DNA from: Geosiphon pyriformis uo1
Lineage: Eukaryota > Fungi > Glomeromycota
Direction of reading: 5' to 3'
Assembly: GCA_016748015.1 (NCBI GenBank)
Contig: JAAOMT010000003.1
Span: 624,373-688,372, forward strand
DNA: 64,000 bases
Shown here: positions 6,665 to 56,300 of the stretch, in pieces
Layout of the letters: the number at the start of each line of letters is the position of its first letter
How positions within the stretch are numbered: the first letter of the stretch is position 1
Translations under genes and position numbers: made by a program
The notes under the pieces: generated by a model
The model's input: the letters and a program-made list of their open reading frames with translations, nothing else
Databases searched by the model: none
What the model was told of the DNA's origin: nothing

Positions 6665-6693
6665 AATAAATAAATAAATAAATAATAAATAAA
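6665..6693. repeat. (TAAA)n microsatellite
   Basis: aataaataaataaataaataataaataaa. Confidence 0.7.
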
Positions 6694-11361: not shown

Positions 11362-11730
11362 ATGTTAATACTATCATCTTCACAATTTCTGCTACCAAGA
11401 AAGGTTACTTCTATGCCTGTGTCTAGCGCAAAACAAAAAGAGGATCTCAAGCAACAAAAACAAATCTCAATTTTTTTTCAACCTATGAATTCTTCAGTGA
11501 TAACGGGTCAGGTATTAATATCAAATGATTGGAAACAAAAAAGCTGCAGAATGGTAAAAATTGTTTTTATCTATCATGTTAGACTTTGTCAATTTGCCTT
11601 TGACTTCTTTTAAAATGTCTTTTTTCTTTATTCTGTTGATAAGCATTAACATAATTTTGTCATTAATACAGGTTGTATTTGTTGTATGCTAGAAGAAAAG
11701 CTGCATATTATCAATGAAAATATTAAAACA
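11362..11730 (+). other. Possible first exon(s) of a host gene or gene remnant truncated by the repeat desert
   Basis: Non-degenerate composition. ATG at 11362, possible donor cag|gtatta at ~11511, acceptor ..aatacag at ~11671, donor cag|gtaaag at ~11731. The second exon hits a stop in the obvious frame. Confidence 0.25.
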
Positions 11731-13626
11731 GGTAAAGAGCTTTTTAAGTCAAAAATTAATTAAGCTTTTTTATATATTGTTTTCTTTGCGAGTTTTAAGC
11801 TAAACTAGATATTAAAAATCAAAATCATTAAAACTAATATTTTTTTGTGTAATTAAAGTTTTTTATTTAAAATTTGTAAAGGTTTTAATATTAAAATAAT
11901 AATATATATTGTAACTTTAAAAATTCAAATTTTTAATTATATTTTGAACAATTTCAAAATTTTTTAACTGTTACTAATCATTATAAGTAACTTAAAATTT
12001 TTTAATTTTAAAATTAATTTTTAAAAAGTAATAATAAACAAATTTAAAATATATTTTATAATTTATTTATATTTAAAACAAATAATATTTAATATTTTTA
12101 ATAATTAAAAACCAATAATTAAGCAAATAATTTTTTTAAAAAAAACTTAAAACAAATTTTGATTATTATTAAATATTTTTTAAAGTTTTTACAAACAGCT
12201 TAAAAATATAATTAATAACATATATATGCTAATAAATAAATAATTTTTTTTTGCTAATTAAATTTTGTTTACAGTTATATTAAATTTACTTAAAAACTAT
12301 TTTTTGTAATTTTGTATTTGGTTTAACAAATTATATTTTATATATTTAAATAACAATTTAATAATTTTTTTTATTGTTTTAATAAAGTGTAATTTTTTTA
12401 TTAACGATATTATTTTTTTTAAAATTATTATAAATATAAAACATGTATTTTTAATATGTAATTAGTTATTTAAATTTAAGTTAATAAATACAAAATTGTT
12501 ATAAATTATAAAAAAAAAATTTTGTTATTTTTATAATTATAGCCAAAGCAAAAAATAATAAATTATATTTTCTCTATTATTTGAAACAACTAATAGTATT
12601 TTTATTAGTAAAATATTAACAGTTATTAAATTACTTATTAATATTTTATAAAAACATTTTTTTTAAATAAATAGTTATAAACTAACTTTTTATTAGTTTT
12701 ATTTAAAAGATTTAAAAAACTATTTTTGTTATTATTACTTTTTTTATTTTAACTCATATGATTAAAATAGCCAAAAAAACAATTACTTCTTTTTTTTAAG
12801 TAACTAACTTTTTTAAGATTCTTAAAAATGTTTTTTTTTATGTTTTTTAGCATAATATTAATATTTTGAAACTTTGTTTTTTTTGTAAAAAATAAAATAT
12901 TAATTTTATTTAATTTTTTTAATAATTATACTAATTTTATAGTAATTACATTAATTAAAGTGTTGTTATAATTTAAAAATTTAATAAAAGTTATAAAATA
13001 ATATAAATTATTTAATTATAATATAACATAATAATAATCTTAAAAAAGTAATAATTAATATAAGCAATAATTATCAAATAATATTAACAGTAAATATTAT
13101 CTTGTAAGAGTAATAAATACTATATTAAAATATTAAAAATAAAGTATATATTATAAATTATAAATATATATATATACAATAATTTTAATATTAAAAAAAA
13201 AAATTTTATTTTTAAAAATTTTTGGTTTTTATTATCTATTTTTTACAGTAATTAATCTTTAACAATTACTTTAAAATAAATATTCAAAATAAATTTTTAA
13301 TAAAAAAAAATAAGAAATAATAATTAATTATTACAATAAAAATATTAGAAAAACTTATTTGTACTATTTATTAAATAAAACTGTTATTTATTAACTAAGT
13401 CTTTTAAAAAATAATTTTTAATTAAAATTATTTATATTATTAATAAAAATACTAAAAAATTATTAATATTTTGTATTTTTAAATTAAAAAAACACTTTAG
13501 ATAATTACAAAAATAGCTTTAAAAAAAAATCTTAACAATAGTAAATGAATTTCAAATTAGTCTTTAAAAAAACACACTAATATACAATAACAATTAAAAT
13601 TTAAGAAAAAGTTTATATTATAATAT

Positions 13627-29060: not shown

Positions 29061-29939
29061 TGTTATGGGATAATTTTCTTGTTATATTTAATTGCTGATA
29101 TCCCATTTTAATTGCAATCAGTCTTTCATGAGTTTCTCAATTCTATTTGTGTGATAATGTCACTGTTATACTGAAGGCTTTCTTTTTTACTGTTGCGATA
29201 TAAGTTATTCTTCAATTCTTGATTGTTGTGTGTGTTTATGTACTCCTTTTCAGAGGCTGAACTGAAATCTACCCACTGTTTGGGGTCTTCTCTGAGGCTA
29301 TCCTTGCAATTGCCTGATGTGTTTCTCTAATCTAGAAACACAGAATGTTAATGGTCTTTAGTGCTTTTTTAATTCTTACAATAAAGCTTTTATCAATTAG
29401 TAACAACGTGAATAATCTTGATCAAGGATTATTCTTCCAAGGGATTCAGTTGATGAATAATAGTTTCATTCAATAAATAATACAAGTAAGTTTTTTAATA
29501 CTTTGGGTTGTGATAGTTCAGTTTTAAATATTCTTTTTTATTTCTTTTTGATTTTAAAGGTTTCTTGGGATATTTAATTTGAAAGTATGATTTAAAATGG
29601 AGTTTGTTGGATAAAATTGGATCTATTGCTTGATAAGTTATGATTTTTATTACTTGATTGATTATTTCCCAATATTAAAACTACTGTATATATACATGTT
29701 TGTAGTTCTACGAGAAAACACATTGTAATACTTTCTTTTTTTGATATTTCAACCTGGTGTTTGCTGCTATCACCAGTTGGTGTTGGCTGCTATTGTGAAC
29801 TGGTGCTTGCCACTATCGTGAGATGGTGTTTGCTACTATGTTAATCATTACCTTTCTAAGATTATTACTGTACTATATTATGATTGAATAGTTTGTATTA
29901 TTTTTATGATTCTTTTTGCTAAATTCTTAAACTATAACA
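29061..29939 (-). repeat. 3' LTR of Gypsy A
   Basis: TGTTA...TAACA; about 97.4% identical to 37891-38769 (23 mismatches by manual count, no indels). Confidence 0.97.
29752..29843. repeat. 23-bp tandem repeat (x4) in the U3 part of the LTR (also at 38582-38673; x6 in the solo LTR at 44258-44395)
   Basis: Units acctggtgtttgctgctatcacc / agttggtgttggctgctattgtg / aactggtgcttgccactatcgtg / agatggtgtttgctactatgtta. Confidence 0.85.
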
Positions 29940-29943
29940 TTAG

Positions 29944-29954
29944 CCCCTCTTTTT
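29944..29954 (-). other. Polypurine tract of Gypsy A
   Basis: Minus strand reads AAAAAGAGGGG just before the 3' LTR. Confidence 0.9.
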
Positions 29955-30621
29955 AAGATTGAACTCTGTCAAAATCGAAGTTAATTTCTTCATTAAATTC
30001 TAAGTTACTATAGTGGTTCAATACTGTGTTATTAATTTGTTGTTGTAATTCTTGAAATTGTGAGTTGGTAAGTCGTCCAATACTGTTGGTTGTTATTATG
30101 TTCATGGTTGAGTCCAACAATAATTTGTGACAGTTTTCAAATGCTTTGAAAATTCTGTAAACTGTTTTTGAATGGAATGTAGTGTTGGTTTTTCCAATGA
30201 AAGGTTCTAATAGTTGGATAGTTGTTTTGTCAAACACTTTAGTTGAGTCTTTTGAGTATAATGTTTGTATGTTCAAGTGCTTTTCTAGTTGATAATAACA
30301 GTAATTAATTGGAAATTTCGTTTTTAAGTTGCTAAATGTGTCTGGTGTTAATTCACTTATTTTTATTTCTTCTATTATTAATGTATTGCCCAATGCTATC
30401 TCTAATTTTTCAATAACTTTGCTAATAAATTTGTTGTTATATTTGGCAATATTATATGGTTCGAAATTATGTTCTTTTCTTGTTTTTGGATTTTTTATTG
30501 TTCTTTTTATGTATGTTATTTTGGAGCTATTAACTGTGATTTCTAGATCAGATTTTAATTGTTGTAAGCTTTCAACTAATTGTTGAGTTATATTGTTGAT
30601 GTTTTCTGGAATAAGTATCAT
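29953..30621 (-). CDS. Gypsy A ORF3, uncharacterised 222-aa protein in the env position
   Basis: Intact ORF with aaaacaATG start, ending at the PPT. A decayed homolog occupies the same position in Gypsy C. Confidence 0.8.
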   Translation of the reverse strand: MILIPENINNITQQLVESLQQLKSDLEITVNSSKITYIKRTIKNPKTRKEHNFEPYNIAKYNNKFISKVIEKLEIALGNTLIIEEIKISELTPDTFSNLKTKFPINYCYYQLEKHLNIQTLYSKDSTKVFDKTTIQLLEPFIGKTNTTFHSKTVYRIFKAFENCHKLLLDSTMNIITTNSIGRLTNSQFQELQQQINNTVLNHYSNLEFNEEINFDFDRVQS

Positions 30622-30705
30622 TGTTTTAATTTTGACTGCTATTTTGGAATCTTTTGCATGCGTTTTTATGGTTGTTAAATCATTTTTACTGTAATCTAAG
30701 ATTAA

Positions 30706-32075
30706 TTATCTTTTCAAATAATGTTCAATTAAAACTATTGGTTCTAAATCTTGTGGAATTTGTTCTGGTAGAATTAAAGATAATTGTGTTCCAATTCTGG
30801 GTGTTTTTGTTGTTATTACTGGTTTACTGTAATAGAATTTCAGCCGGTTACCATGTGCTGCTTTTTTTAATATTTTATCATCTAGTCTTAGCTTGTATGC
30901 TCTATTTCCAAGTATTTCATGAATATAAAATGGTCCATCCCACTTGTGATCAAATTTTCCACTCCACTGTTTTTCCATTTTTGTACGATGCAACAATACT
31001 TTATCTCCAATTTTGTAGCTAATTATATTATCTGGTAACTGGTTATCATGTCTCACTTTTTGTTGTTCTTAATATTTTGTGCTGCTTTTCTTCTTTTGTT
31101 TTCTAAAGTTCCCATTAATCCGTATGTTCTTCTAAGTAGTGTTTCCTAGAATGTTGCTTCCATGATAGTGTCACTTGGATAAGTTGGGATAGTAAGTTCA
31201 ACTGGTAATGTGGCTTTTCTTCCATAAACTAGTTCAAATGGTGTGAATTGTGTAATATCTTGTTTTACTGTTCTATATGCTAGTAGTACTGCTGGTATGA
31301 ACAAATCCTATTCTTTTTCATGTTCGTTACTAATTTTTGCCAGTGATTTGCATAATATGTGATTAAATTTTTCAACTAATCCATTTGTTTGAGAGTGGTA
31401 TGATGATGACCGTGGTCGCTTGATTCCAAATTTTTGGTTAAGTTCTTTTAAGGTGCTGTTTATGAAGTGTGTGCCTTGATCTGATAGCAATTTTTGTGGA
31501 CATCCATGTCAGCAAATTAAGTCTTTATGTACAAATTGAGCTATGGAAATAGCATCAGCTGTTTTAATAGCTCTAGCTTCTGGCCATTTGGTGAGATAGT
31601 TCATGGCTACTGCAATATAATGGTTGTTTCTTGTTGTTATTGGTAAGGGTCCAACTAAATCAATTCTGATTCTGTCAAATGGCTGTCCAACTTTTATTGG
31701 TCTTAATAATTCTGTTGTTTTTGCTCCTTCTCTTCATTGGCATGGGTCACAATTTTTTATGTATTGGATTATGTCTGAACTTATTTTTGGCCAATAGTAA
31801 TGGCTAGTTGCATGTTGGATGGTTGCTGTTTTTCCAAAGTGGCCTGAATAAATATCTGAGTGCATGTTAAATAAGATAGTTTCTTTTTCATCCATGGTTA
31901 TAATTCTTAATGGATTATCTGGATTTTGTCGATTCTAGTAATAAAGTATGTGATTTTGGATGAAATAGTGTTTTGCTAATTTTTGGAGCTTAATTAGCTC
32001 TTTTACTGACATTTCTTTGTCTATTTGTAGTGTTTCCAAGTATTGGCTGAGGTTTTTGTAAAGGTGGTTGTTTAT
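30706..32075 (-). pseudogene. Gypsy A integrase, separate ORF (HHCC, DDE core, GPF motif, no chromodomain)
   Basis: MHSDIYSGHFG..CDPCQ; RIRIDLVGPLP; LLSDQGTHF; QTNGLVEKFN; WDGPFYI. A few stops and one frameshift near 31070. Confidence 0.93.
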
Positions 32076-32104
32076 TGTTGTTGTGATGGATGGGTTGGTG
32101 ATTT

Positions 32105-33532
32105 TTATGTGTGTCTCATTCTTGACAAACAGTCCACATTAGCATTTTTGGTACCTTCTTTGTATTTGATAATATAATTATATGGTGCTAACGTTTGTGA
32201 CTATCTGGCGTATTTTCCTTTTAGTGCTTTCTTGTTATTTAACCAGACCAGACCTCTATAATCTGTTGTAATCTCAAAGGGTTGGTACCATAAATATGTG
32301 TCAAAGTGAATACAACTCCAGACTACTGCTAAGCATTCAAGTTCATGTGCTGCGTAGTTTTGTTCTGCCGTACTGAAACTTCTGCTGGCATAAGCGATTA
32401 CACGTTCTCTTCCATTATCATCTTTTTGTGACAGAATGGCTCCAAGTCCAGTTCCAGAGGCATCTGTGGCCAAAATGAATTTCTTGTTGAAATTCGGATA
32501 GATCATTATTGGTGATTCAATGAGCTTTTGTCTAAGGTACTCAAAAGCTTTTTGTTGTGCTTCAGTCCATTCAAACTTCACATTTTTAGATAGTAGGTAA
32601 TTAAGGGGTTTGGCGATGTTTGAAAAGTTTTCTACAAAGCGGTGGTAGTAAGATGCGAGTCCTAAAAAGCTTCTAACTTCTGAAACGTTTCGAGGTACTG
32701 GAAAATTTTTCACTTTGTCTATTTTTGATAGATCTGGTTTTATTCCATCTTTTCCAACTACGTGTCCTAAAAATGCTAGCTCATTTTTCCCAAAAAAACA
32801 TTTTTCTAGATTTAGTTTAAGTCCAGTGTGTCTTAATCTTTCAAAAACTTGTTGTAAATATTGGAGATGATCCATGAATTTTGACGAGAAAACATTTGTA
32901 TCATCCAAGTAGACAACAATGGATTGCCACAAAATTCTGAAGTAAATTACGTTCATTAGTCTTTGGAATGTCGCGGGAGCGTTTGTTAATCCAAATGGCA
33001 TTACATTGAACTCATAATTGCCATTTTGTGTTGTAAATGCTGTTTTATGCCTGTCCTTTGGGTCCATTTCCACTTGCCAGTACTCACTGGTCAAGTCCAG
33101 TGTAGAAAACCATTTTGCTCCTTCAAAAACGTCAAAGATTTTGTCAATTAACAATATTGGGTATGAGTCTTTGGTTGTTTTGCTGTTTAGTTTGTGATAG
33201 TCAATGCAAAATCTAATTTTTCTATTCTTTTTCCTTACTAAAACAACTGGTGAGAACCATGGGCTTATTGATGGTTGTATTATTCCTTTTTCCAACATGC
33301 TTTGGAATTTTTCTCTGATAAAATTATGCTCCATTAGTGGAACACAGTAAGCGCATTGTTTTTCAGGTCTGGCATCTCCAGTGGAGATTTGGTGTTGAAC
33401 CAAGTTGGTTCTTCCAAATTCACCATTTCTTGAAAATATATCAGAGTATTTTAAAATTAATGCTTTTAATTGTCGCTGTTGGTCAGGATTCATTGTTTCA
33501 ATGTTTAATTTGGCCAATTCTTCTGGCGTAAA
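32105..33532 (-). pseudogene. Gypsy A reverse transcriptase and RNase H
   Basis: SPVVLV, RFCIDY, VMPFGLTNAPATFQR, VYLDDT, LATDASGTGLGAIL, ELECLAVVW. One TGG>TAG stop at 32201; the frame ends at SRMRHT* (32105). Confidence 0.96.
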
Positions 33533-36500
33533 TTAATAGCATTCTAATAATTGTTGCCAATTTATTGAAGTGAGTTCACAGTAGAGGGCAATTTCTGAGA
33601 AATTTAGAATTTCTTGTGGTGTTGACGCATTTTCTAGCTCCGTTCCAAGGTATCCAATGATGGTATCTTCCAGAATGTAGACGGGTTCTTCTGTGGTGTT
33701 TGCGATAGGAATTTTTATCCATTGAGCTTTATCAGCTGGAATAAAAAGGTTAGTAAGTCCTATGAGAAACTGTTGGCAAGTTTCTGGGTAGGGCTCAAAT
33801 ATTAGGTCTTTTTCTTTAATTGTTCTTTTTATTCTTATTTCTGATTTTCCATATGGTAGGAGTGTGATGGACCGCTCATTTTTAATTACTTCGCCTTTTT
33901 CCTCTATTGTTTCAGTGAAATTCACTTCAATTCTTTTTTCTGTCGATCCGAAACCAAAAGTTCCTCTCGTTGTTTGTGACAATTCCTCACGATTTTCTAC
34001 TGGCACGAATTTCCCAATTTTTACCAATGGTAGGAAAATTGCTTGTGCAATCTTTTCCTTAGATTCAATGGTATAAGGCTTTTCTGAATTGTTCTGTAGC
34101 AAAACCATCAAATTTCTAGTGTATTTGGAGTCAATTACTCCTCCTTGAATGCTTATTTCTTTTTTCACGAGACTTGATCGCAATGCTATTTGAACTATTA
34201 TTCCTGGTGGAATTTTAACTGCTATTTTTAGGTCGATTTTGATGATGCTCCTGGGTGGTAATGTTGTGGATTGGTCTTCCGGATAATGTAGATCGAATCC
34301 AGCGTCGGTTGGATGGGCTCTTTTGAGTATTATTTCTAAGTGCCTGTTGTCGAAGTATCGGATGTCGGTCATCTGTTCTAAGTTGGTATAGGCTACAAAT
34401 TTTTCTGACTCGAGACCGTCAGGTGAGTCTTGTTGATTTATTGATTGATTTTGAGACTGCTGATTCTTAATTTCCATTTTTCTTTCTAAGTCCCTTTCGT
34501 CTTGACACTTTTCACAGCATTGATTTTGGATGAGACAGTTTTTGCAGAGGTAAGTGTTGATTTGGGCGAAGTATTGTTCTTGCTTTTGTCGAATGAGGCA
34601 TAGTTGTTGATAGTAGTCCTGGAATTTGTCCACTGGGTCGAACATGTTGTAACTGGCAACTTCGTCAGCTACTTCGGCTGACTCTTTCCAATGTTGTATT
34701 TCTTCGGCGGTTCTTCCTCTTACTTTGGCTTGTGTGGTGTTGTACAGCTCATTCTTGTCGTGTGGGTAGTGCTGTAGTCTTTTTAACGCTCTGTTGAATG
34801 CTGCTTCGAATGGCGTTCCTCCTCTTACCCAGTCACAGATGAGGATTGTGTATTGGCAAGTTGCGTCACACGTTCCTCCTCTGTCTGGTATGTCATTCCA
34901 GTTGCACCCTCTTGGTAACGGTTCTCCACAAGCGAGGCATGGTTCCTTGTTCCATTTTCTATGTCTTTTTGGGTAACCGTATTTTTCTTTGTTACAACGG
35001 TTACAATAGTAGTGGGTGGGATTTCTTGGGTCTTTGTCCAGTGCACTGCACGCAGTCATAGACGAGAGTTTCTTCTTGCAAACCAAGCATTTTAGCTTTG
35101 GTCTGCATCGCTGGTGGTTTTTTTGTGAACTTATCTGGTTCCATTTGGATCTTTCTTCGCTGGTCCACATTGGTATGGCTGGTAGTCCTGTTTTTTGGTC
35201 ATCAGCCCAAGAGAGCTGATAGGTTTTGATGGCTGGTAGTGCTGAATTTTCCTCAAATTCGAAGGTAGGTCTTTGGTTGGCGCTGGGTTTTTGGAAGTGG
35301 CCACAGGTGGCTGGAATTTTGGCCTGGTGGCCATTATAATTGATTAGAAGCTCTTGGGTGGTCCAGTTTAGGGTGGCATTGGCTTTTGTTAGCCAGTTAT
35401 TCCCTACTAATGCTTGATATTGTGTAGTGTCCATTACTAATACTTTTGTAGATATTACTATGCTGTTAATTTTGAAAGAGAATGAGTCAATTTCGCCATG
35501 AGGCAGCTTTGTACTTCCATCAGCTATTATGATTTGGGACGTCGCAGCACGATCAACTTTGAAACCCAGTTGGTTTACTAATTGAAGCGTTATGATGCTT
35601 CCAGCGGATTTGCTGTCTAAGATAAGTTTGATTGGGGTATTGTTTACAGTGGCTTCCATATACATAGCAGTAATTGGGCATTTTTCGTCCAATGCTGCTC
35701 CACTGAACATAGTCTTGTTTTTCTCTAATTTAAAAGGAAAAATAGCTGCGAGGCTGCTATCTTCGGTGGCAACTGCTGGTAGTATTGTCTGGCTCAATTT
35801 GGAGAAATTCTTGGTTCTGTTTATGTTTCTACTATCATTGTTTCCGATAATCAGGTTTTCCAGTATATTAAGGTAAGTTTGTTGATAATTTTGGTAGTTT
35901 GGATTGATTTGCTGATTGGTTCCAGCGCAGTTTGGATTCCTCTGAACCAATGCGTTCTGGTTCCACATGAGCTGATTTCGGGCCTCAGGACGCCAATTCG
36001 GGTTGGCTATCATAAGCTGTTGCTGATAAGCTCCTTGATTTTGATATGTGGTGGGATATTGGTGTGGTATTGGCATGTACTGGTTTCTGGGCATTTGAGG
36101 TGGTGCATAGTAATTATTTTTGCATGCTTCCTGCATCATTTGCATTCGACATTGACTAATCAAATGTCCTACACATTTGCAAAAATGGCAGGCACGCATT
36201 TCTGTTCTGAATTCCTGATGCAACGAGTGATTATTTCGACTGTTGCTGACTTCCTGGCTGCGTCTTTGGGGTGGTTGGTATGTATTTTTTTTCAGATCCA
36301 GGATGAGGTAACTTTCTATTTTTTTAGAGAGTTCTTCTCCTAATCGCATTACTCTTTTCTTTAATGTTTCTGTCTTATTTTCCTCCATTACCATGTTAAC
36401 CATTTGACTATAGTTAGCTTCTTTCTCAGCCAATTCAAAGGCTCTGGCGAGTGTAATGGCTTCTGGTAAAGAATTAGGGTGGGCAGAGCATACTCTTCCT

Positions 36501-37807
36501 AAAATGCTGCTTTTTAATCTTCTAATAAACTGATTTAAAACCTGAGAATCAGTGTAGTATCTTTGTTCAATTGCTTCAATCTGATGGCAAATTCGATTGA
36601 ATCGAGCAAGGTATTGGGTGACAGTTTCACCAGTATTTTGCTTGATAGTATTGAATTTGTTCTGTAGTTGGATTATAGTGTTTGGATCGCTAAAATACTC
36701 TAGGAGTGCATTTTTAAATTCGGCGAAGCTCATGGGTTTTGTTTCTAGACTTTGATACCACGAGTTGTCTGTGCCTTTCAGGAAGAAAGGTAATGTTTGA
36801 ATTGCTCTTTGGTCATTCCAGTTATTTGCCTGGATGGCTTTTTGTGCTTCTCTGAGCCATGTGTGCACGTCTATTTCTTCTTCCTCTCTTGAGAAATCTG
36901 TTAGTCTTGCAATGTATGATGTGATCATTTCGTTGCCGTTTTCTGCTGGTGGGTTTATTGGTCTAAGAGGAGGTGAGATGATATTTTCTTGAGCATTTCT
37001 AAAGGTGGCTTCCCTTATATCCAGTTCTTTCTCTTGATCACGAGTTTCTTGGTTTCTGGACTGGCTGCTTGTTCCAGTGACTGGTTTTGTAATTGTTTTT
37101 TCACTGGTTTCTTTTTCAGATTCCGATTCAGACTCCTCTTCACAGTTTTCAAATCCTGTTCTAAATTTTGGCTGAAAAAGAGGGTTTTGGAATAGTGATG
37201 AATATCCTTCTGTAATTGGTATGTCTCCCCAGTTACGTTGTTTAATTTTATCAGTATAACTAGGAGTTTTTGGCATTTGTGGAGTTGATGTTGATGATAA
37301 TGCAGCTCCTAATGGAATTTGTATCTTATTTTCTGGTAAAAAATGGTATGATTTATCTTCTGGTGAATAAATACATTGTTTTTTTATTGATTGAGTGACA
37401 GTTTTCTTTGGCATTTGAGCTGGTGTTCCTAGTTTTTGCTGGTTACTTTCCTGATTAGTTTCTAAATTTTCTTTGGTTTTGTTGGCACGTTCCCTAGTGT
37501 TTCCTGTGGATATTGAAAAATTTTTGTTGGCATATTGCTCAATTTTTTGATGGATTTTGACAATAGTTGTGGCTATTACTGCTACTTCTTTTGTAGTGTA
37601 TTGTGATAATTCTCTATACAATCCAAGTTTTGTGTCGTGTGGTTTTTCTTCCTTTTCTATATGATAATTTATTCTGGCATTGATATAATAAGTGAGGGCA
37701 GATTCTGCTGAACAACACCCTTCTGGTAATCTAAGATCACTTTGATTTTGTGTGTAAATAGCACGGCAGAATTCAAGAACAGTAAGATTAGGGGTTTTTG
37801 TCACCAC
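33533..37807 (-). CDS. Gypsy A gag-protease-Cys-rich domain-dUTPase polyprotein (1424 aa open; in frame with RT across a single TAA)
   Basis: Capsid-like segment (DVHTWLREAQKAI..FFLKGTDNSWY); CHFCKCVGHLISQC knuckle (~36150-36195); protease LILDS(G>K)SAGSII (~35610); dUTPase motifs AGFDL, RSSL, GVIDSKY, IAQ, RGTFGFGST (33941-34330). Confidence 0.93.
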   Translation of the reverse strand: MVTKTPNLTVLEFCRAIYTQNQSDLRLPEGCCSAESALTYYINARINYHIEKEEKPHDTKLGLYRELSQYTTKEVAVIATTIVKIHQKIEQYANKNFSISTGNTRERANKTKENLETNQESNQQKLGTPAQMPKKTVTQSIKKQCIYSPEDKSYHFLPENKIQIPLGAALSSTSTPQMPKTPSYTDKIKQRNWGDIPITEGYSSLFQNPLFQPKFRTGFENCEEESESESEKETSEKTITKPVTGTSSQSRNQETRDQEKELDIREATFRNAQENIISPPLRPINPPAENGNEMITSYIARLTDFSREEEEIDVHTWLREAQKAIQANNWNDQRAIQTLPFFLKGTDNSWYQSLETKPMSFAEFKNALLEYFSDPNTIIQLQNKFNTIKQNTGETVTQYLARFNRICHQIEAIEQRYYTDSQVLNQFIRRLKSSILGRVCSAHPNSLPEAITLARAFELAEKEANYSQMVNMVMEENKTETLKKRVMRLGEELSKKIESYLILDLKKNTYQPPQRRSQEVSNSRNNHSLHQEFRTEMRACHFCKCVGHLISQCRMQMMQEACKNNYYAPPQMPRNQYMPIPHQYPTTYQNQGAYQQQLMIANPNWRPEARNQLMWNQNALVQRNPNCAGTNQQINPNYQNYQQTYLNILENLIIGNNDSRNINRTKNFSKLSQTILPAVATEDSSLAAIFPFKLEKNKTMFSGAALDEKCPITAMYMEATVNNTPIKLILDSKSAGSIITLQLVNQLGFKVDRAATSQIIIADGSTKLPHGEIDSFSFKINSIVISTKVLVMDTTQYQALVGNNWLTKANATLNWTTQELLINYNGHQAKIPATCGHFQKPSANQRPTFEFEENSALPAIKTYQLSWADDQKTGLPAIPMWTSEERSKWNQISSQKNHQRCRPKLKCLVCKKKLSSMTACSALDKDPRNPTHYYCNRCNKEKYGYPKRHRKWNKEPCLACGEPLPRGCNWNDIPDRGGTCDATCQYTILICDWVRGGTPFEAAFNRALKRLQHYPHDKNELYNTTQAKVRGRTAEEIQHWKESAEVADEVASYNMFDPVDKFQDYYQQLCLIRQKQEQYFAQINTYLCKNCLIQNQCCEKCQDERDLERKMEIKNQQSQNQSINQQDSPDGLESEKFVAYTNLEQMTDIRYFDNRHLEIILKRAHPTDAGFDLHYPEDQSTTLPPRSIIKIDLKIAVKIPPGIIVQIALRSSLVKKEISIQGGVIDSKYTRNLMVLLQNNSEKPYTIESKEKIAQAIFLPLVKIGKFVPVENREELSQTTRGTFGFGSTEKRIEVNFTETIEEKGEVIKNERSITLLPYGKSEIRIKRTIKEKDLIFEPYPETCQQFLIGLTNLFIPADKAQWIKIPIANTTEEPVYILEDTIIGYLGTELENASTPQEILNFSEIALYCELTSINWQQLLECY

Positions 37808-37870
37808 TTTTGTCTCTTCTTTTTTAGCAATGAATTATTGCTAATTATTATTTCCTTTTTTGATTTTCTT

Positions 37871-37888
37871 TCCTCATAGGGTTCACCA
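37871..37888 (-). other. Primer-binding site of Gypsy A (TGGTGAACCCTATGAGGA), probably tRNA-Trp
   Basis: Starts with TGG 2 nt after the 5' LTR. TGGTGAACCC is complementary to tRNAs ending GGGUUCACCA, as in plant-type tRNA-Trp; the tRNA assignment is inference. Confidence 0.75.
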
Positions 37889-37890
37889 AA

Positions 37891-38769
37891 TATTACAAGA
37901 TGATTTTCTTGTTATATTTAATTGCTGATATCCCATTTTAATTGCAATCAGTCTTTCGTGAGTTTCTCAATTCTATTTGTGTGATAATATCACTGTTATA
38001 CTGAAGGCTTTCTTTTTTACTGTTGTAATATAAGTTATTCTTCAATTCTTGATTGTTGTGTGTGTTTATGTACTCCTTCTCAAAGGCTGAACTGAAATCT
38101 ACCCACTGTTTGGGGTCTTCTCTGAGGCTATTCTTGCAATTGCCTGATGTGTTTCTCTAATCTAGAAACACAGAATGTTAATGGTCTTTAGTGCTTTTTT
38201 AATTCTTACAATAAAGCTTTTATCAATTAGTAACAACGTGAATAATCTTGATCAAGGATTATTCTTCCAAGGGATTCAGTTGATGAATAATAGTTTCATT
38301 CAATAAATAATACAAGTAAGTTTTTTAATACTTTGGGTTGTGATAGTTCAGTTTTAAATATTCTTTTTTATTTCTTTTTGATTTTAAAGGTTTCTTGGGA
38401 TATTTAATTTGAAAGTATGATTTAAAGTGGAGTTTGTTGGATAAAATTGGATTTATTGCTTGATAAGTTATGATTTTTATTATTTGATTGATTATTTCCC
38501 AATATTAAAACTACTGTATATATACATGTTTGTAGTTCTACGAGAAAACACATTGTAATACTTTCTTTTTTTGATATTTCAACCTGGTGTTTGCTGCTAT
38601 TACCAGTTGGTGTTGGCTGCTATTGTGAACTGGTGCTTGCCACTATCGCGAAATGGTGTTTACTACTATGTTAATCATTACCTTTCTAAGATTATTACTG
38701 TGCTATATTATGATTGAATAGTTTGTATTATTTTTATGATTCTTTTTGCTAAATTCTTAAATCGTAACA
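37891..38769 (-). repeat. 5' LTR of Gypsy A
   Basis: Direct repeat of 29061-29939; adjacent to the PBS. Confidence 0.97.
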
Positions 38770-39169
38770 ATGACAAAAGAGTTGTTATTTAAAAAAATGT
38801 CAAAAAACTAATAAAAAAAAATAAAAAAACTTCTTTTTCAGAAAATGCACTTTTTGAGAATTTTTGGAGATAAGAGAGAAAAAAGTTTGTTAATTTTAGA
38901 TAAATTAATATTAAATCAAATTAAAAATTAATTATCAAAAAAATTTTAGTTAATTTTTTTAAATTAACAGTAACATTAACATTTACCAAATTTAATAAAA
39001 TAAAAACAATAAAGCTATAATTAATTGGTTTTTATCAAAAAACACTAGTTAAATTTAAGAACATTAAAATTATTAATTTGATTGTTTTTAAATAGTTAAT
39101 TTTGTTAAATAAAAACTTTGTACAAGTAACCAAAACAGTTATTAACAAATAAACATAGAACTTTAAAAA

Positions 39170-43553: not shown

Positions 43554-44479
43554 TTTTATAAGATGGTTTTCTTGGTATATTTAATTGTCAATATTCTGTT
43601 TTAATTGCAATCAGTCTTTTATAAGTTCTTTAATTCTATTTGTGTGATAATATTACTGTTATACTGAAAAGTTTTTTTTTAATGTTATAATGTAAGTTAT
43701 TTTTCAATTTCTTATTTTTGTATATGTTTATGTATTCTTTTCCAAAGGCTGAACTGAAATTTACTTACTGTTTGAAGTTTTCTTTGAACCTATCTTTGCA
43801 ATTGTCTTATGTGTTTTTCTAATTTAGAAATATTGAATATTAATAGTCTTTAGTGCTTTTTTTAATTTTCACAATAAAGCTTTTATCAATTAATAACAAT
43901 GTGAATAATTTTGATCAGAAATTATTCTTTCAAAGAATTCAGCTAATAAATGATAGTTTCATTCAATAAATAATACAAATAAGTTTCTTAATACTTTAGA
44001 TTGTAATCATTTAGTTTTCAATATTTTTTTTCATTTTTTTTTAATTAAAGATTTTTGTGGATATTTATTTTAAAAGTAAAGACTAGAAGGTAATTAAAAT
44101 GGAACTGTTGGCTGAATTGTTTGATAACTTGTTTTTATGATTTGTTTTATAATCTTGTTGAATAATAATATTTTTTTCAATATTAAAATTATTATATATA
44201 TATATGTTTATAGTTTTACAAGAAAACACATTATAATACTTTCTTTTTGGTATCTTAACCTGGTGTTTGCTGCTATTATCAGTTGGTGTTGGCCACTATT
44301 ACCAGTTAGTGTTGGCCATTATTACCAGTTGGTGTTAACTGCTATTATAAGCTAGTGCTTGCCATTATTGTGAGATAATGCTTGCTATTATTATTTTTTT
44401 AGAATTATTACTATGCTATATTATAATTGAATAATTTATATTATTTTATAATTTTTTGCTAAATTTTTAAATCATAATA
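43554..44479 (-). mobile_element. Solo LTR of the Gypsy A family inserted into the RT of Gypsy B
   Basis: Collinear with 29061-29939. Perfect 4-bp TSD GCAT at 43550-43553 and 44480-44483. Removing it rejoins the RT segment at ..IIKDAY... Confidence 0.92.
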
Positions 44480-47400
44480 GCATCTTTAATTATAACATTA
44501 TTCAGTTGTTAATAGTCTACACAAAATTTGAATTTGTTTTTTTTTTTTACAAAGACCACTAATGAAATCCAAAAACTTTTTAATAGTTGGATAAGACTAT
44601 TATTGAGCATTTATTAAACTTTTTCTTTAATAAATTGGTGGCTAGTAAATAGAACTTGGTAGATTTGTTAATATTTTGGTAAAGCATCCCCTGTATGGAT
44701 CTGGTACTATATAGTATTAGTTTTTTTAAGATTATTATTATTTTTGGCAAATATATTAGCATATTTAGCAATCAACTGTTTTAATTGTTTTTGTTATTAG
44801 AATTCTAAGAAACTTATATTGATTTAAAAAAGTTTTTCTTCTAAAATATGGTAGTTTTCAGTAGTAAGAGTGATGTTTGGATTTAAAAATAAGATATGTT
44901 TCACAATTTTAATGAAATTAAAAACAATCTAAGAGATTTTATCTTGGAAAATGTTGCTATATATGATTCTAATTTCTAATTTATTTAATAAAATAATGGG
45001 GTAATTGTTGAAATTGTAAAATATAACTTGAATTTTTTTATTTCTTGTAGAATATAAATATTTAAAATTGTAATTTCATCCTTTAAACAAATTTGTTTAT
45101 TTAATTCAAAGATTTGTTGGGTAGTAGTAGGCTTTAGACAAGTGTAAATTTTATAATGTTTTTTAAAAAGTAAAATGGTAATTGATTAAAACAGTTGAAA
45201 AATCCGATAAAATTTATTTTGTGCATTAAGAACTATATTTACTAGAACTGTAAATTGTCCAGTTAAACCAAAATTTTGGGTTTTTTTTCACTTTTTTCTA
45301 ATTGTTTTCTGTTGTTGACTGATTGTAAATCCAAAATTTTGATTAAAAGTAGGTAGATTGCTTAAACAATTTTTTTAGCATGCTTAATTTTGAATAATTT
45401 ATCAGTTTTATTTTGTATCAAGATTGTAATGTTTTTGGTGTATCCTGTATCTATGATTCCTCTTTTGATGCTAATTTTTTTGCTTGTCAATAATAATTGG
45501 AATGCAATTTAAATCATTGCTTTTGGTGAAATTTCAAAAGCAATTTTTAAGTTGATTTTTGTCAAAAATTTTGGTTAGGAGACCAAAGTGTTTTTTTTTG
45601 AGTATTATAGATCATATTCAGCATTTATTTTGTGGGCTTTTTTTGGTCTTATTTTTTGTCTATTGTTGTTGAAATATTGGAGTTGTATAATAGGCTGATT
45701 TTCTATAAAATAGATTGAAATTGTTGTAATTTTTTCTTTTGGTTTAGGTTTTTCAAATTCAATTTTATATTTATTATTTTTATTGAACAAGAAAATACTA
45801 ATTACATAGTATTTTAAACACTATTAGTTATTACAAAACATAGTATATTCTTTGCATAATTGAATGTTCATTTGCTTTAATTGTTGAATTTGAGCTTTTT
45901 TGGTTAGATAGGCATAACTTGTAATCTGATAGTATGTTTTTACTTCATTTTTGTAATCAAATTCAGCTATTTATTGTATATTTAATGTATTCTGTTTTTT
46001 TCATCTGACATATATCTTCTTGGGTTTCTCTATTGATTAAAACTATGGCCAATTCATAGATTATTTTAGTATTATGTGGATAATAATAGAGTTTATTAAG
46101 GATGTTATTATATGTTGCATTGAAAAAAGTTCTTTTTTTTACTTTTTTGCAATTAAAAATGCATATTAACAGGTTGATTACAGACTCTTTTTTTTATTGC
46201 AACATCAATCTAGTTGTATTTTTTTAATAACATTTTTTTATATATAAAACAAAGAATATTATTTTATTTTCCACTTTGTTTAGAATATCTGAATCGTTTT
46301 TTATAGCATGTCTTACAAAATAATAGATACATGTTTTATATTTTTCTTTTGGAGATATGTATACTCTCATAGACAAAAGCTTTTTGTTGCAATTTTTGCA
46401 TGTTAAGTAGAATATAAGATGGTTGTTTTTATGGTTTTGGTATAAAATATTAAACAACATTCCATTTTCTGGTTTTTTTAAAAATTTTTTGCTTTGTTTT
46501 CTTAGCTCAATTGGATGTTAATCCAAAAGCCATGTATGTTTTAATAATTGGCATTTTTTTTTTAAATTTAAACACCAAGACTTTTTCAGATTGTTTGTTA
46601 AAAGTACCACAGATAATAGATACTTGGATATATTGTCCTTGATATAAAATTTTTAATTCTTGTGTTTTTCAGTTTAAGTTTGCATTGGCTTTAAGAAATC
46701 AATTATTTCTGATAAAAGCTTAGTATTAGAGTATATCTATGACAAAAACTTTAATTGAAATAGTAATTCTATTAATAGTAAAAAGAAAGTTGTTAATTTT
46801 TCTTACTGAGGTCTTTTTTATACTATCTGTAATAACAATAATTGTTTTGGCAGATCTGTCAACAGTTTGTTGAAACTGTTGTATTAATTGATAGATAATA
46901 ATACTACCAGTAGATTCATTGTTTAAAATTAATTGAATTGGTTTTTTTTCAACTTTAGCTTCAGTATATATTGCTGTGATTGCTTTTTGTTTATTAACTA
47001 CTATATTACTAAGTAAAAATAGTAATTTGTTGTCCTTAAATTAAATAAAAATATATCTGAAAAATTAGCATTTTGTGTAATTTGGGTCGATAGAATAGTA
47101 TTATTGAAAAGATTTGATTTTGATGCTGTAGCTTTATCTTCAGAAAGTACAGTTTATTAAAAATTCGACTTTTTTAATATTGTAAGATAATTGAGTTAAG
47201 TATGGTAATATACAGGTTTTTGCTAAACTGGGTTTTGGAGAACTAATTAATTGTTGAGATTGAATTAATTATTGTTAGAAAACCAATTTTGTAATATAAA
47301 TTGGTTTTGTTGGCTTGATTGTTAAACAGATATTTGATATTATTAAACAAGTGATTATTGATATTGTTTTTGAATAGATTGTAGAGCAAATTGATAGTAA

Positions 47401-50360: not shown

Positions 50361-53300
50361 GTATTAACAACCATCAACTTAACAATACCAAACATCTGTC
50401 CAAAGATTAATTTAACAAAACTAATTTACACCACAAAATCAGTTTTTTAACAATAATTGATTCAATTCTAACAACTATTTAGTTTTTCGAAATTTGGCTT
50501 AATAAAAGCCCATATATTATCATACTTAACTCAATTATCTCACAATATTAGAAGAATCATATTTTTAACAAACTGCTCTTTTTGAAGATAAAGTTATAGT
50601 ATCAAGATCAAATTCTTTCAACAATACCATCTTATCAATCCAAATTGCCCAAAATACTAATTTCTTAGATATTTTCTTATTTAAATTTAAAGCCAATGAA
50701 TTATAGTAATATAACAATCAATAAGCAAAAAGCAATTACAGTAATATATATTAAAGCAAAAGTTAAAGAAAAACCAATTTGACTAATTCTAAATAGTGAA
50801 TTTACTAGTAGTATCATCATCTACTAACTAATACAACAGCTTTAATAAACTATTAACAAATCTGCCCAAACAATTATTGTTACAGCCAATAATATGAAAA
50901 AAACTCCAATAAGAAAAATTGACAACTTTTTCTTTATTATTAATGAAATTACCATCTAATTAAAGTTCTTGTCATAAATGCACCTCAATACCAAGTTCTT
51001 ATTAGAAATAATTAATTTCTTAAAGCCAATACAAACCTAGATTAGAAAACACAAGAATTAAAAATTTTATACTAAAGACAATATACATAAATATCTGCTA
51101 TATGTAGTATATTTAATAAACAATTTAAAAAAACCCCAGTATTTGAATTTAAAGAAAAAAAAAATGCCAATTATTGAAACATATATGGCTTTTGAATTAA
51201 CATCTAATTGGACTGAGGAAACAGAACAAAAAATTTTTAAAGAAACCAGAGAATAAAATGTTGCTCAATATTTTATACCAGAATTATAAAAACAACTATC
51301 TTATATCCTATTTAAATACAAAAACTGCAACAAAAAACTTTTATCAATAAGAGCATACATATTTTTAAAAGAGAAATATAAAACATGCATCTGTTATTTT
51401 TGCAAGACATGCCATAGGAAACAATTCAGATACTCCAAATAAAATAGAAAATAAGACAATATTTTTTGTTTTATATGTGAAGAAATATTACCAAAAGAAT
51501 ACAACTGAATTGATGTTACAATAAAAAAAAAAATCTGTAATCAAATCTGTCAATATGCATTTTTAATTACAAAGAAAGTAAAAAGAAAAACTCTTTTCAA
51601 TGCAACATATAACAGCATTCTTAACAAACTTTACTATTATCCACATAATACTGAAATAATTTACAAACTGACTATAGTTTTAATCAATAAAAAAACCCAA
51701 TAAGATGTATGCCAAATGAAAAAAACAGAGTACATTGAGTCTACAATAGAATTAGCTGAATTAGATTATAAAAATAAAGTAGAAACATACTACTAGATTA
51801 CAAATTATGCCTACTTAATTAAAGAAGCTTAAATTCAACAATTAGAACAAATAAATATTCAATTATATAAAGAATATACCATGTTTTGTAATAACCAATA
51901 ATGTTTAGAATGCTATGCAATTAGATTTTTTTGTTTAGTAAAAATAATGAATACAAAATCAAATTTGAAAAACCTGAACCAAAAAAAAAATTACAACAAC
52001 CCTAATTTACCTTATTAAAAATCAGTCTGTTATAAAACTCAAATATTTTAACAACAATGAATAAGAAATAAAACCAGAAAAAGCTCATAAAATTGATGCT
52101 AAATATAATTTACAATATCCAAAAAAAAACACTTTGGTTTTTTAACCAAAACCTTTGACAAAAATCAATCAAAAATTGCTTTTAAAATCTTATCAAAAAC
52201 AATGATTCAAATTGCTTCCCAATTATTGTTGGCAAGCAAAAAAATTAATGTTAGAGGAAAAGTCATAGATGCAAAATACACTAGAGACATCACAATCTTG
52301 TTACAAAATAAAACTGACAAATCATTCAAAATCAAACATATTGAAAAAATTGTTTAAGCAATCTATTTACCCTTAATCAACATTTTAGATTTACAATTGG
52401 TTAGCAACAAAAAACAATTAAAAAAAAGTGAAAGAAGAACCCAAAGTTTTGGTTTAACTGGACAATTCACAATTCCAGTAAATATAATTCTTAATACACA
52501 AAACAAATCTTACCAGATTCTTTGATTTCCCCAACCAATTACTATTTTATCTTTTGGAAAACATTACAAAATTTACACTTGTCCAAAGCCTATTACCACT
52601 TAACAAATCTTTGAATCCAATAAACAAATCTGTTTAAAGCATAAAATCTTAATTCTAAAAAAAATGAAAAAATTTGGAATTATCTTTTATAATTCTAACA
52701 ATTATCTTAATATTTTATTAAATAAAGTAGAAATTGGAATTATATATAACAACATTTTTCAAAATAAAATCTCTTAGATTGTCTTTAATTTCATTAAAAT
52801 TGTGAAATATATCTTATTTCCAAATTTAAACATTATTTTCACTACTAAAAACTACCATATTTTAGAAAAAAAACTCTTTTAAATCAACATGAATTTTTTA
52901 GAACCTCAACAATAAAGACAACTAAAACAGTTAATTGCTAAATATATTAATATATTTGTGAAAGACAATAACAATCTGGAAAAAACTGATATTGTTTAAC
53001 ATTAAATCTATACAGAAGATGCTCTACTAAAATGATAATAAACTTACTAAGTTCTATTTGCCAGCCACCAATTCATCAGAGAAAAATACAGTGAATACTT
53101 AACAATAAACTTATACAACTATCAAAAAGCTCTTGGGCTTCATCAGTAGTCCTTATTAAAAAGAAAAATTACAAAATCAAATTTTGTGTAGACTATTGAC
53201 AACTAAATAATATTATAATTGAAAATATCTATACACTACCAAAAATTGACAACATGCTAAATGCTTTAAGAAAAGCCAAGTTTTTTTCAACTTTAACTTA

Positions 53301-56300
53301 GAAAGTAAATACTGACAAGTTGAAATAGATCCCAAAGATTAACCAAAAACAGTATTTACTACATAAGAAGAAAATTACAAATTCAATATTATGTCTTTTG
53401 GATTTTTTAATATACCAACAATATTTCAGTAACTTATAGGTATTATTTACAAAAAACTCCTATGGTAATTAGTAGTTATTTATTTAAATAATATTAATGT
53501 ATACTTTTCAAGTTTTGAAGCTTATTTAATCCATTTGTGAAAAGTTTTTTAATAATTATGAAAAACAGAATTAAAGTTAAACATTGAAAAATGTTACTTT
53601 AAAAAAACAAGTTTAATTTTCCTTGAATATATTGTCAGCAAAGATAGAGTCCAACCCAATCCAGGAACAATTAATGCTATTAAAAATTTCAAAATTCTTT
53701 AAAACACAACAGAACTAAGAAAATTTGTAGAATTAACATCTTATTACCAAAAATTCATCAAAAAATTCTCTAAAATCACTAAACTACTCAACTACTTGAC
53801 CAACAAAGATGTAAAATATCAATAGATATAAGCTTAACAATAAGTATTTGACACTCTCAAAAAAAACTTATCACAGCTCTAATTCTTACATATTTAGATT
53901 TCAGTAAAAAGTTTCAGTTAACTATTAATGCTTCATACATAGCTTTTGACATTATCTTATCACAATTAAATAACAATAGCAATAAATAAGTAATTGTTTA
54001 TGCCAATAAAATATTCAAGCCAACAGAACTCAAGTATAGCTCAATAGAATTAAAAGCAGCAGCTGTTATCTAAATTCTTAAACATTTTTAACAGTACCTC
54101 CAAAACAGCTCTGAATTTGACATTATAATTAACAAAATTGGTCTCAAATGGCTCAACAAAAAAAGTTCTGAACTTAGTGCCAAACAATTCTTATAAACTA
54201 ATTTTCTCACTAATTACAAATTTATTGTTTATTACAAACTAGGCAGACTATATATAACCATTGACAGTTTCTTAAGAATGAGACAAAATTAATATTAACA
54301 CAACTTTATTACAACTTATCAACTTAACAACAAACAACAAATTAGTAAACAATAGATCTTAAAAACTACAACAACATCAAAAACGATTTAAAAATTTTTA
54401 CTATATCAGAAAACTGGTTTTCAGTTAAAAAACACCAATTACAACACCAATTTAAACAATATTTTATCTATTATAACAAAATTTACTATTAAAATTGCAG
54501 AAATTTATTCAACTTATTTAGATTAGTACAAGAGAATAAAAAGAAAACAATATTATACAACATATATACAGATCTATTATTAACACATCTAAAAAAAAAT
54601 GGAACAATTTAGAGAATACTTGAACACTATTTTTGGTCTTATATGCAAAAAGACATTCAACAATACATAGAATTTTGTAATAGTTGTTAAAAAAAAGAGA
54701 TATTTGTCCCACAAAACTATTAAATCCAATCAAAATTGGACAACCTTTTAACAGAGTTGGTATCAATTTAGTTGAACCACTACTTATTACAAAACAAAAA
54801 AACTATTATATTGCAGTTGTAATAGACTATCTCATCAAATGATCTAAAGCCAAAGTTATCTAAAAAGCAGATGCAAAATCAATAGCAAATTTCATTTATA
54901 AAGACATTTTTATATACATAAATGCTCAATTAAACTCTTATTTGATCAAAAATACACTTTGTAAACAACTTGATACAAGAAATTTGTAAACAGTTTAATA
55001 TTAAATGACTTTTATCTTTACTATATTATTTATAAACAAATGGATTAATGAAATGTTTTAACAGAACACTGTATAAATCATTAGCCAAAATCTTAACTAA
55101 TTTTGAATAGAAATAAGATATCTTTATTTCATCAGTATTATTAACATACAAAACACTAAAACAAGATACAATAAAACACACATTATTTGATTTAACATAT
55201 AAAAAAACAACAATATTACTAATCAATTTTATAGTAGAAACATATTCAATACAACCAATTACTGAAAAAAACTTCCAAAAAATATTTTAACAAAAAGCCT
55301 ACATCCTTTTCAATATATTAGAAGGAAAATAACAAATAACAGCAATTCATATTAAATATTCTTAAGCTTAATAAAAAGAATAGCATAACAACAAACTGTT
55401 ATTAGTTAGCAATAAATTCAAAGTTGGAAATAAAGTTTTTTTATATAAAACTAAGAGTAAAAAACAGTAAAGTGGAAAAAATAAACATAAATAAGATAAA
55501 CTATTCTATATTTACAAAGTTTTAGACAATAAATTATACAAATTAAAACTTAATAACAAAGTTTTAGCAAAAGTTGCATATAAAAATTAATTGAAACACT
55601 ATCACTCCAGAACAAATTCTGAACCATTAATTTCACAAATTGATACATATTTCTTTTTAATTAATCTCAAAGATATTCCCTAAAACTTGGAACTAATAGT
55701 TATAATAAAACAACAATCAAACTTAAATACTTAATTTAATATTATAAATCTTTTAATAATACACAAACATAAAACAAAAATAGTAAATAATTACAAAAAA
55801 TACTTAAATCCAAAAACATATAAAACTCTTATATTCAAAAATAATTTCTTTATTCTTTTCAAATTTTTTTTAAAATTTCTATTCTTAGTTGGTTACTTTT
55901 ATTATGATTATTCTCTAAAACATTTAACAAATATCCTAAAAATTAATGTTAGTATTGAAAACACTTTTTGATTTATCCATAACAATTAATGAAAGTTAAA
56001 TTAGTTATATTCAAAAAAAACTACAACATTAGTAGTACTTAATTTACAGAATTATTATTTCTATAAAAGAAAAACAAGAAGTTGTTTTGAAAATCAATTA
56101 CCAGAACTTTTAAAACAAGTCTTAAAAAAATCTTTAATTGTCTTTATTAATATTTTATCAAATGCTACAATCTAATAAAAACTTCTACTATTTTTTAATG
56201 AACAAAACAATAAACATATCTTTATCTATAAATATTTTTATATTGCAAAAACACTTTATGAATAAAAACTAAAACTTGAAGCAACAAATCTTACTTTTAA

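Follow-up and report, generated by a model that had tools for sequence, protein, structure and literature searches.

The Ty3/Gypsy retrotransposon at positions 29061-38769 of a 64,000-nucleotide stretch of the Geosiphon pyriformis genome (contig JAAOMT010000003.1; the whole stretch is referred to as the window) carries the mark of a strong repeat-associated C-to-T mutation process. The host belongs to the Glomeromycotina and is related to the fungi that form mycorrhizas on plant roots. [quoted passage not shown] The initial annotation of the element had proposed a repeat-directed, broad-context process of this kind. That C:G-to-T:A changes accumulate on repeats, after insertion and in a member of the Glomeromycotina, is borne out below. 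However, a RIP-like mechanism is not, as CpG is the main target and there is no per-copy strand bias or clustering.

The two long terminal repeats (LTRs; 29061-29939 and 37891-38769) were compared without gaps. They differ at 23 of 879 positions (13 G/A and 10 C/T) with no transversions and no indels, which reproduces the count made at annotation. The probability that 23 of 23 differences are transitions is 9e-7 at a transition/transversion ratio (Ts/Tv) of 1.2, 9e-5 at 2 and 0.006 at 4. With C or G taken as the older state, the changes fall on 8 of 16 CpG, 6 of 115 CpA, 3 of 40 CpC and 6 of 94 CpT sites. The description of these changes as occurring in all dinucleotide contexts is correct but hides the fact that CpG is, per site, about eight times hotter than the other contexts. 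Among the six CpA cases, five may be former CpG sites in which both LTRs have lost the partner base, and the CpG share therefore lies between 8 and 13 of the 23 differences and the non-CpG share between 10 and 15. An accompanying statement, that under half are at CpG, holds in the minimal reconstruction (8/23) but not if hidden CpG sites are counted (up to 13/23). The changes are not almost all at CpG, the outcome that would have spoken against a broad context, as at least 10 of the 23 LTR differences are non-CpG.

The ends of the element support C or G as the older state. Once C and G are restored, the LTR ends match as a perfect inverted repeat of 8 bp, and the flanks become a 4-bp target duplication with a CpG at its centre. 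As they stand, the terminal TG of the right LTR (37891..38769) has decayed to TA on the plus strand, and the ACAA and ATGA flanks likely go back to this duplication, its central CpG having decayed through one post-insertion mutation in each copy.

For a larger sample, 29061-37890 was compared with contigs from four public sequencing runs, which represent two samples. In run X1, 918 of 956 variable places were transitions (Ts/Tv 24). The window carried A/T where the contigs carried G/C at 211 of 232 differences in X3 (the reverse at 13), and the same polarity was seen at 187 of 209 differences in X2, from the other sample (the reverse at 11). Among 40 of the 981 rows of this comparison, sites with A/T in the left LTR only had G/C in most other copies in 5 of 5 cases. 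Sequence contexts were taken from proteins.

For this, 120 paralogous proteins were aligned to the window's gag-protease-dUTPase frame (33533..37834), and stretches that were gapped or had less than 70% local identity were dropped. A rare-variant test, in which direction is not assumed, was performed on 1120 columns where the window agrees with the majority (30,728 residues). C:G-to-T:A changes were found at 1386 of 22,007 opportunities (0.063; 6.3%), as compared to 55 of 36,074 (0.0015) for T:A-to-C:G and 84 of 147,575 (0.0006) for transversions; 118 cases that were ambiguous and 79 that needed several steps were not counted. They thus make up 1386 of the 1525 classifiable rare variants (91%). 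In codon-internal contexts, on both strands, the share of mutated copies was 36-43% at CpG (215/504 and 257/722), 9-12% at CpA (67/555 and 88/1008), 8-12% at CpC (193/2299 and 177/1492) and 7-10% at CpT (59/871 and 238/2297). Because the neighbours used are codon-internal, hidden CpG is impossible at those CpA, CpC and CpT sites. The rates are about 0.40 at CpG and 0.09 elsewhere, CpG being some 4-5 times faster, and non-CpG C-to-T change is some 50-80 times as frequent as the reverse transition. Non-CpG change is so far above the other mutation classes that CpG decay alone is insufficient.

The non-CpG rate depends on neighbouring bases. It was 0.116 after a pyrimidine and 0.055 after a purine (692 sites, both strands, P 2e-24), and the 5'-pyrimidine effect was also seen at the DNA level in two relic pairs (89/136 vs 61/135, and 59/112 vs 41/142). 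It was higher with T two bases downstream (0.12 vs 0.06-0.08), and C with purines on both sides still mutated (Cys>Tyr 21/494). No TpCpG preference was found (ACG 0.38, TCG 0.32, CCG 0.29, GCG 0.26), and non-CpG sites adjoining CpG had no higher rate. On the coding strand the non-CpG rates were 0.069 for C-to-T and 0.098 for G-to-A. Within 33533-37834, non-CpG G-to-A exceeded C-to-T by 10-45% per 5' context on the coding strand; this excess may reflect antisense-strand transcription or a gene-prediction bias.

The coding damage noted at annotation was also recovered. In the frame at 33533..37834, 1385 residues are covered by the family; 134 of them depart from its majority state, almost always through C-to-T or G-to-A. 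The protease DSG>DSK change lies at residue 742 (codon AAA), where 41 of 63 paralogs have G. The element has stops at conserved Trp (TAG, TGA, TAA) and at Arg or Gln (TGA, TAA, TAG), as do the relics at 44.5-46.7 and 52-55 kb.

Build-up of changes in copies and probable confinement to repeats

Derived states were shared between copies at the level of chance (3813 observed as compared to 3775 expected, 1555 copy pairs), which indicates that each copy mutated independently after insertion. Per-copy tests covered 111 of 121 copies, ten being excluded for too few sites. The non-CpG load ranges smoothly from 2.5 to 22.5% and rises with the CpG load (rho 0.71, 111 copies). Per-copy strand bias was absent, the strand share being homogeneous (chi2 83, 110 df), and so was spatial clustering (1690 close pairs vs 1676 +/- 10.5 expected). 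This pattern fits a steady process or many light rounds, and not one or two heavy RIP passages.

Judged by composition and by one host protein, which are indirect measures, the process is probably confined to repeats, and a genome-wide mutator is unlikely. The repeat spectrum implies an equilibrium of about 2% GC for neutral DNA. Non-coding host DNA has 26-32% GC and an observed/expected (o/e) CpG ratio of 0.6-1.2, host islands overall have 34-36% GC, and borders between host islands and repeats are sharp, within about 200-400 bp. The observation that host genes keep CpG, made at annotation, agrees with the CpG o/e of 0.71 and 0.94 in two islands. An exon in the island near 61 kb corresponds to G. 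pyriformis G9A89_023238 (100% identical over 83% of the queried exon), which has orthologs in Ambispora, Gigaspora, Rhizophagus and others. Compared to the consensus of 10 orthologs (111 columns), the host protein has 5 replacements of the forward kind, 9 of the reverse kind, 21 of the transversion type and 9 that take several steps. Fourfold sites of the host gene have approximately 30% GC, one of the alignments used spanning an intron.

The same test was applied to five clusters of related Ty3 proteins from Rhizophagus irregularis and R. clarus, comprising 56 distinct sequences in four sets. Forward, reverse and transversion changes stood at 186:88:85 in these clusters as compared to 682:40:71 in Geosiphon, and pairs diagnostic of non-CpG change at 57 vs 36 as compared to 250 vs 13. 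The 14 least mutated Geosiphon copies gave 109:5:7 and, for the non-CpG-diagnostic pairs, 23 vs 0 (Fisher P 3e-15 and 8e-5). By this test the process is not general in arbuscular mycorrhizal (AM) fungi, and Rhizophagus, an imperfect control, shows an ordinary spectrum. Among 79 metagenome loci, none is close to the family of the element, the best DNA match being 67% over 480 bp. Ts/Tv in pairs of these loci ranges from about 1 to 11, and they therefore provide only a loose background. The retroelement pairs L062/L071, L052/L064 and L070 have Ts/Tv 7-11 and low CpG.

Possible causes of the C-to-T excess

A slow, methylation-linked genome defence that resembles RIP is likely behind the erosion of Geosiphon transposons. 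We lean towards a gradual mutation process linked to DNA methyltransferases that are active on repeats, for which enzyme, methylation and timing are each predicted. Methylated heterochromatin would provide the route to repeats, which would be marked at CpG by one methyltransferase and at the remaining cytosines by a predicted enzyme of the DIM-2/RID type. The methyltransferase would itself be the mutagen, with 5-methylcytosine or enzyme-bound cytosine being deaminated and left unrepaired. The conversion of C to T would proceed in small steps as cells divide through many generations, gradually and not premeiotically, and tracts of 9-14% GC may be the final outcome.

Methyltransferase mutagenesis is favoured because CpG changes fastest, other cytosines change at about one fifth of that rate, and one clock fits both. 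Non-CpG C-to-T change is about 60 times as frequent as the reverse, and there is no such mitotic excess in Neurospora heterochromatin, which suggests an enzyme-assisted or unrepaired event. The AM fungal clade is said to hold DNMT1, DNMT5, DIM-2 and RID (PMC8298701). DIM-2 is reported to methylate all CpN contexts (PMC13297926), Dim2-dependent mitotic C-to-T change occurs in Zymoseptoria repeats (PMC8016269), and LTR elements of Phycomyces carry CG and CHH methylation (PMC11258239).

Several points weigh against an origin in methyltransferase activity. A table in a 2026 review places RID in Ascomycota only, in conflict with PMC8298701. The Zymoseptoria Dim2 mutator acts at CpA in >98% of cases and spares CpG (PMC8016269). 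Methylated H3K9me3 domains of Neurospora have a mitotic Ts/Tv of 0.93, and the flood of C-to-T changes appears only in meiosis (bioRxiv 2022.03.13.484164); passive decay of non-CpG methylation is thus insufficient there, which leaves room for a sexual-stage process. Many light rounds of RIP would look identical to gradual change, and neighbouring non-CpG changes show a weak same-strand excess (0.573 vs 0.552 +/- 0.012, P 0.037; an earlier null that ignored local composition had given P 0.001). The Rhizophagus copies are younger, come from several strains and may be under selection, and the host-protein control is one gene that is itself under selection. The family data consist of predicted proteins that are stop-free and clustered at 90%, with windows below 70% identity dropped. 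Finally, a high Ts/Tv is not unique to this family, as metagenome pairs reach 196:27, 44:6, 17:2 and 11:1.

A relaxed-context form of RIP, in which RID-type homology sensing acts in many light rounds at a premeiotic or nuclear-pairing stage and is accompanied by ordinary CpG decay, is a doubtful alternative. The Ts/Tv of 24 in X1 is close to the top of the range of 2 to 25.7 for RIP-positive fungi (PMC4352252), Neurospora shows such a spectrum from meiosis and not from mitosis (bioRxiv 2022.03.13.484164), and RID is reported in the AM fungal clade (PMC8298701). The weak same-strand coordination of neighbouring changes points in the same direction. However, CpA is not preferred, copies show neither strand bias nor clustering, loads follow the CpG clock, and 41% of the Geosiphon genome still consists of LTR elements (PMC11952901). 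A true homology-sensing defence of the RIP type, with a signature of its own at CpG and pyrimidine-C, would make RIP older than Dikarya and the changes a record of a sexual or nuclear-pairing stage in the AM fungal lineage; we hold this to be improbable.

The pyrimidine effect would be explained by a separate cytosine deaminase that prefers TC and CC and acts on silenced repeats, CpG being lost independently through CpG methylation. The non-CpG rates of 0.116 after a pyrimidine and 0.055 after a purine agree with such an enzyme, as does the same effect in the DNA of two relic pairs. Methyltransferases also have flanking preferences, however. Both strands are affected and the LTRs are unlike each other, which argues against cDNA editing, and the changes form no clusters. 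No candidate gene was seen, though no deaminase gene search was made. We consider a deaminase quite unlikely.

A C-to-T excess across the whole genome, due to lost repair of uracil or T:G mismatches or to ultraviolet (UV) light at the soil surface, would require that selection or biased gene conversion makes the host islands seem spared. In its favour, the genome as a whole is rich in AT, and the rate is higher next to pyrimidines, an effect that UV would also have. Against this, non-coding host DNA keeps 26-32% GC and CpG up to sharp borders, host-gene fourfold sites have about 30% GC, host-protein replacements show no C-to-T excess, and purine-flanked C still mutates (Cys>Tyr 21/494). This makes a genome-wide excess very unlikely. 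Ordinary CpG-methylation decay with mis-assigned contexts, or an amplification or assembly artefact, is scarcely credible: CpG may account for up to 13 of the 23 LTR differences and X1 may be the assembly's own sample, but codon-internal CpA, CpC and CpT change at 7-12% (50-80 times the reverse transition), X2 from a different sample has the same polarity (187/209), and host genes are untouched.

APOBEC-type cDNA editing is not supported, as the LTRs differ on both strands and both C-to-T (0.069) and G-to-A (0.098) occur at non-CpG sites of the coding strand. Spreading from CpG sites is unsupported, there being no excess of non-CpG changes beside CpG, and UV as the sole cause was tested and not supported.

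Element architecture, LTR dating and neighbouring repeats

The element (Table 1) has the Ty3/Gypsy order of LTRs, gag, protease, reverse transcriptase (RT), RNase H and then integrase. The best 120 of 235 homologs of the gag-protease-dUTPase frame are all annotated G. pyriformis proteins, the top ones at 83-89% identity. A homolog search with RT and longer proteins returned generic Ty3 proteins at 34-54% identity. Many "hypothetical proteins" in the G. pyriformis genome are mutated transposon fragments.

Table 1. Positions of the element, its parts, control islands and other repeats in the window.
Feature	Position	Strand	Remarks
Complete Ty3/Gypsy retrotransposon	29061-38769	-	two 879-bp LTRs, gag, protease, dUTPase, RT, RNase H, broken integrase
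3' LTR (left copy), 879 bp	29061..29939	-	A/T state at 9 of 23 LTR differences
5' LTR (right copy), 879 bp	37891..38769	-	A/T state at 14 of 23 LTR differences
Left target-site copy ACAA	29057..29060		sequence
Right target-site copy ATGA	38770..38773		sequence
Putative primer-binding site, starts TGG, just inside 5' LTR	37872..37888	-	assigned from position
Putative polypurine tract adjoining 3' LTR	29942..29955	-	assigned from position
gag-protease-dUTPase frame, 1433 amino acids stop to stop	33533..37834	-	sequence
RT-RNase H frame	32201..33532	-	interrupted by TAG at conserved Trp (32203)
Integrase and SH3 region	30784..32063	-	frames other than RT; stops at Trp (31310) and Arg (31511)
Probable host island with relics on either side (control)	10060..11760		GC 34%, CpG o/e 0.71; open reading frame without Pfam match
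Control, host-gene island	60760..64000		GC 36%, CpG o/e 0.94; AIM24-family gene
Older LTR copy, same family	43556..44477		76% identical, GC 21%, zero CpG left
Heavily mutated Ty3 relic	44482..47346	-	inverted partner at 50379-53226
Heavily mutated Ty3 relic, partner of 44482-47346	50379..55200	+	many stops at W, R, Q
AT tract	5900..7400		GC 8.7%, no CpG
Similar AT tracts, 12-14% GC	11800-15200, 38800-40000, 42200-43400, 60000-60740		composition

Integrase follows RNase H in a different frame (30784-32200). An in-frame TAA at 33533-33535 separates the dUTPase region from RT, and homologs have no consistent residue there; it may be a natural stop or a mutation. Contigs of runs X2 and X3 match 33565-37782 and 29485-29560 with GT..AG joints on the plus strand (34028-34099, 34886-35009, 36276-36417, 36787-36903 and 37344-37497). 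These joints look like those of a spliced transcript that is antisense to gag-pol and comes from a much less mutated copy, the run type being guessed and the strand not directly visible in the contigs.

Dating by LTR pairs is biased in both directions. Divergence is nearly all C-to-T, and a neutral clock therefore overstates age. The internal load of the window copy (39% at CpG, 7.8% at non-CpG sites) predicts about 43 LTR differences as compared to the 23 seen, roughly half of the expectation, so a second effect pulls the age estimate down. The annotation's claim that neutral-clock LTR dating overestimates ages is thus right about the inflation of divergence by the process, but this LTR pair (23 vs about 43) shows the opposite bias. 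Gene conversion between the LTRs, or an already-mutated donor, would explain the deficit, and the star-like family mildly favours conversion. The older LTR copy has G/C at 140 sites of which 19 are A/T in both LTRs, and a 295-bp stretch (29303-29596) has zero LTR-LTR differences (P 0.007). Seven of the 23 differences occupy C:G sites of the terminal repeats, which have 8 such sites, four of them CpG. Kimura landscapes place no recent burst in Geosiphonaceae (PMC11952901); they may overstate ages, given that divergence is nearly all C-to-T.

Other repeat pairs in the window fit the same picture. The relic pair at 44.5/50.4 kb differs by 463 transitions and 43 transversions, and CpG o/e is 0.03 in the relic at 50379-53226. 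The repeat pair at 7.6/40.1 kb differs by 296 transitions and 68 transversions, and in the oldest, saturated pairs the ratio is down to about 1-2. In relic pairs at 0.9-28.9 kb, 55 of 97 stops lie opposite W, Q or R. Decayed LINE-like reverse-transcriptase copies at 890-28900 and 57500-59950 are 64-69% alike, with CpG o/e mostly <0.3. The tracts of 9-14% GC have hardly any CpG, are partly alike in sequence and flank host islands. They are likely the end state of erosion and may be fully eroded repeats.

Comparison with known systems

The C-to-T excess in Geosiphon shares several features with RIP in Neurospora crassa and other Pezizomycotina (RID, DIM-2): C:G-to-T:A changes far outnumber all others in repeats, frames are killed, neighbouring genes appear to be spared and very AT-rich tracts are formed. 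It differs in that CpG is hit most, CpA is favoured over neither CpC nor CpT, copies lack strand bias and clustering, and the host is a member of the Glomeromycotina. Burst-like, strand-coordinated mutation within a copy is a feature of Neurospora RIP that many light rounds would hide. The usual RIP index is TpA/ApT minus (CpA+TpG)/(ApC+GpT). Its values are below zero for the element and for most of the relics, and index screens would therefore miss the Geosiphon signature. A Glomeromycotina genome holds a C-to-T excess of RIP strength, apparently confined to repeats, that CpA-based indices miss. If the process is tied to DIM-2 or RID, methyltransferase-driven genome defence would be placed at the base of terrestrial fungi; if it is premeiotic, it bears on the long-standing question of sex in AM fungi.

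RIP-like signatures were reported as confined to Ascomycota in a survey that sampled Gigaspora and Rhizophagus (PMC12543289); Geosiphon was not found in its text or its 19 supplementary files. RIP signatures were reported as undetected in Gigaspora and Mucoromycotina (PMC8647823, citing Venice 2020), and Rhizophagus transposable elements have high CG methylation (PMC8647823). The available parts of PMC12344493, PMC13443276 and PMC7928374 held nothing bearing on the question. A literature search conducted outside the two Geosiphon genome papers, Bewick 2019 and Venice 2020 turned up no account of RIP, or of hypermutated repeats, in Geosiphon, and the novelty of the process is provisional.

Compared to known systems other than RIP, the likeness is again partial. 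The Dim2 mutator of Zymoseptoria tritici (PMC8016269) is gradual, confined to repeats, >95% C-to-T and linked to a de novo methyltransferase. The Geosiphon data are near, and not above, the >95% mark at the protein level (91%), with transitions at 918 of 956 places in X1. In Z. tritici CpA takes >98% of the changes and CpG escapes them, whereas in Geosiphon CpG leads and all contexts are affected. Ordinary CpG-methylation decay, like the process in Geosiphon, removes CpG fastest and leaves repeats poor in it, but non-CpG C-to-T change in Geosiphon is 7-12% as compared to 0.15% for the reverse and 0.06% for transversions. A signature of CpG plus CpA is described in Tuber melanosporum (PMC4352252). 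In Entomophthorales, a RIP-like claim outside Dikarya has likewise been made, and for Zoophthora the index-based signal carries its authors' own caveats (PMC11105155). That claim uses dinucleotide indices, whereas the Geosiphon changes, in another phylum, were polarised across copies of one family. In Pucciniomycotina hypermutation (PMC3318451), as in Geosiphon, CpG-containing sites are hottest in transposons outside Ascomycota; the Pucciniomycotina prefer TpCpG, whereas Geosiphon shows no TpCpG preference and is strongly mutated at non-CpG sites.

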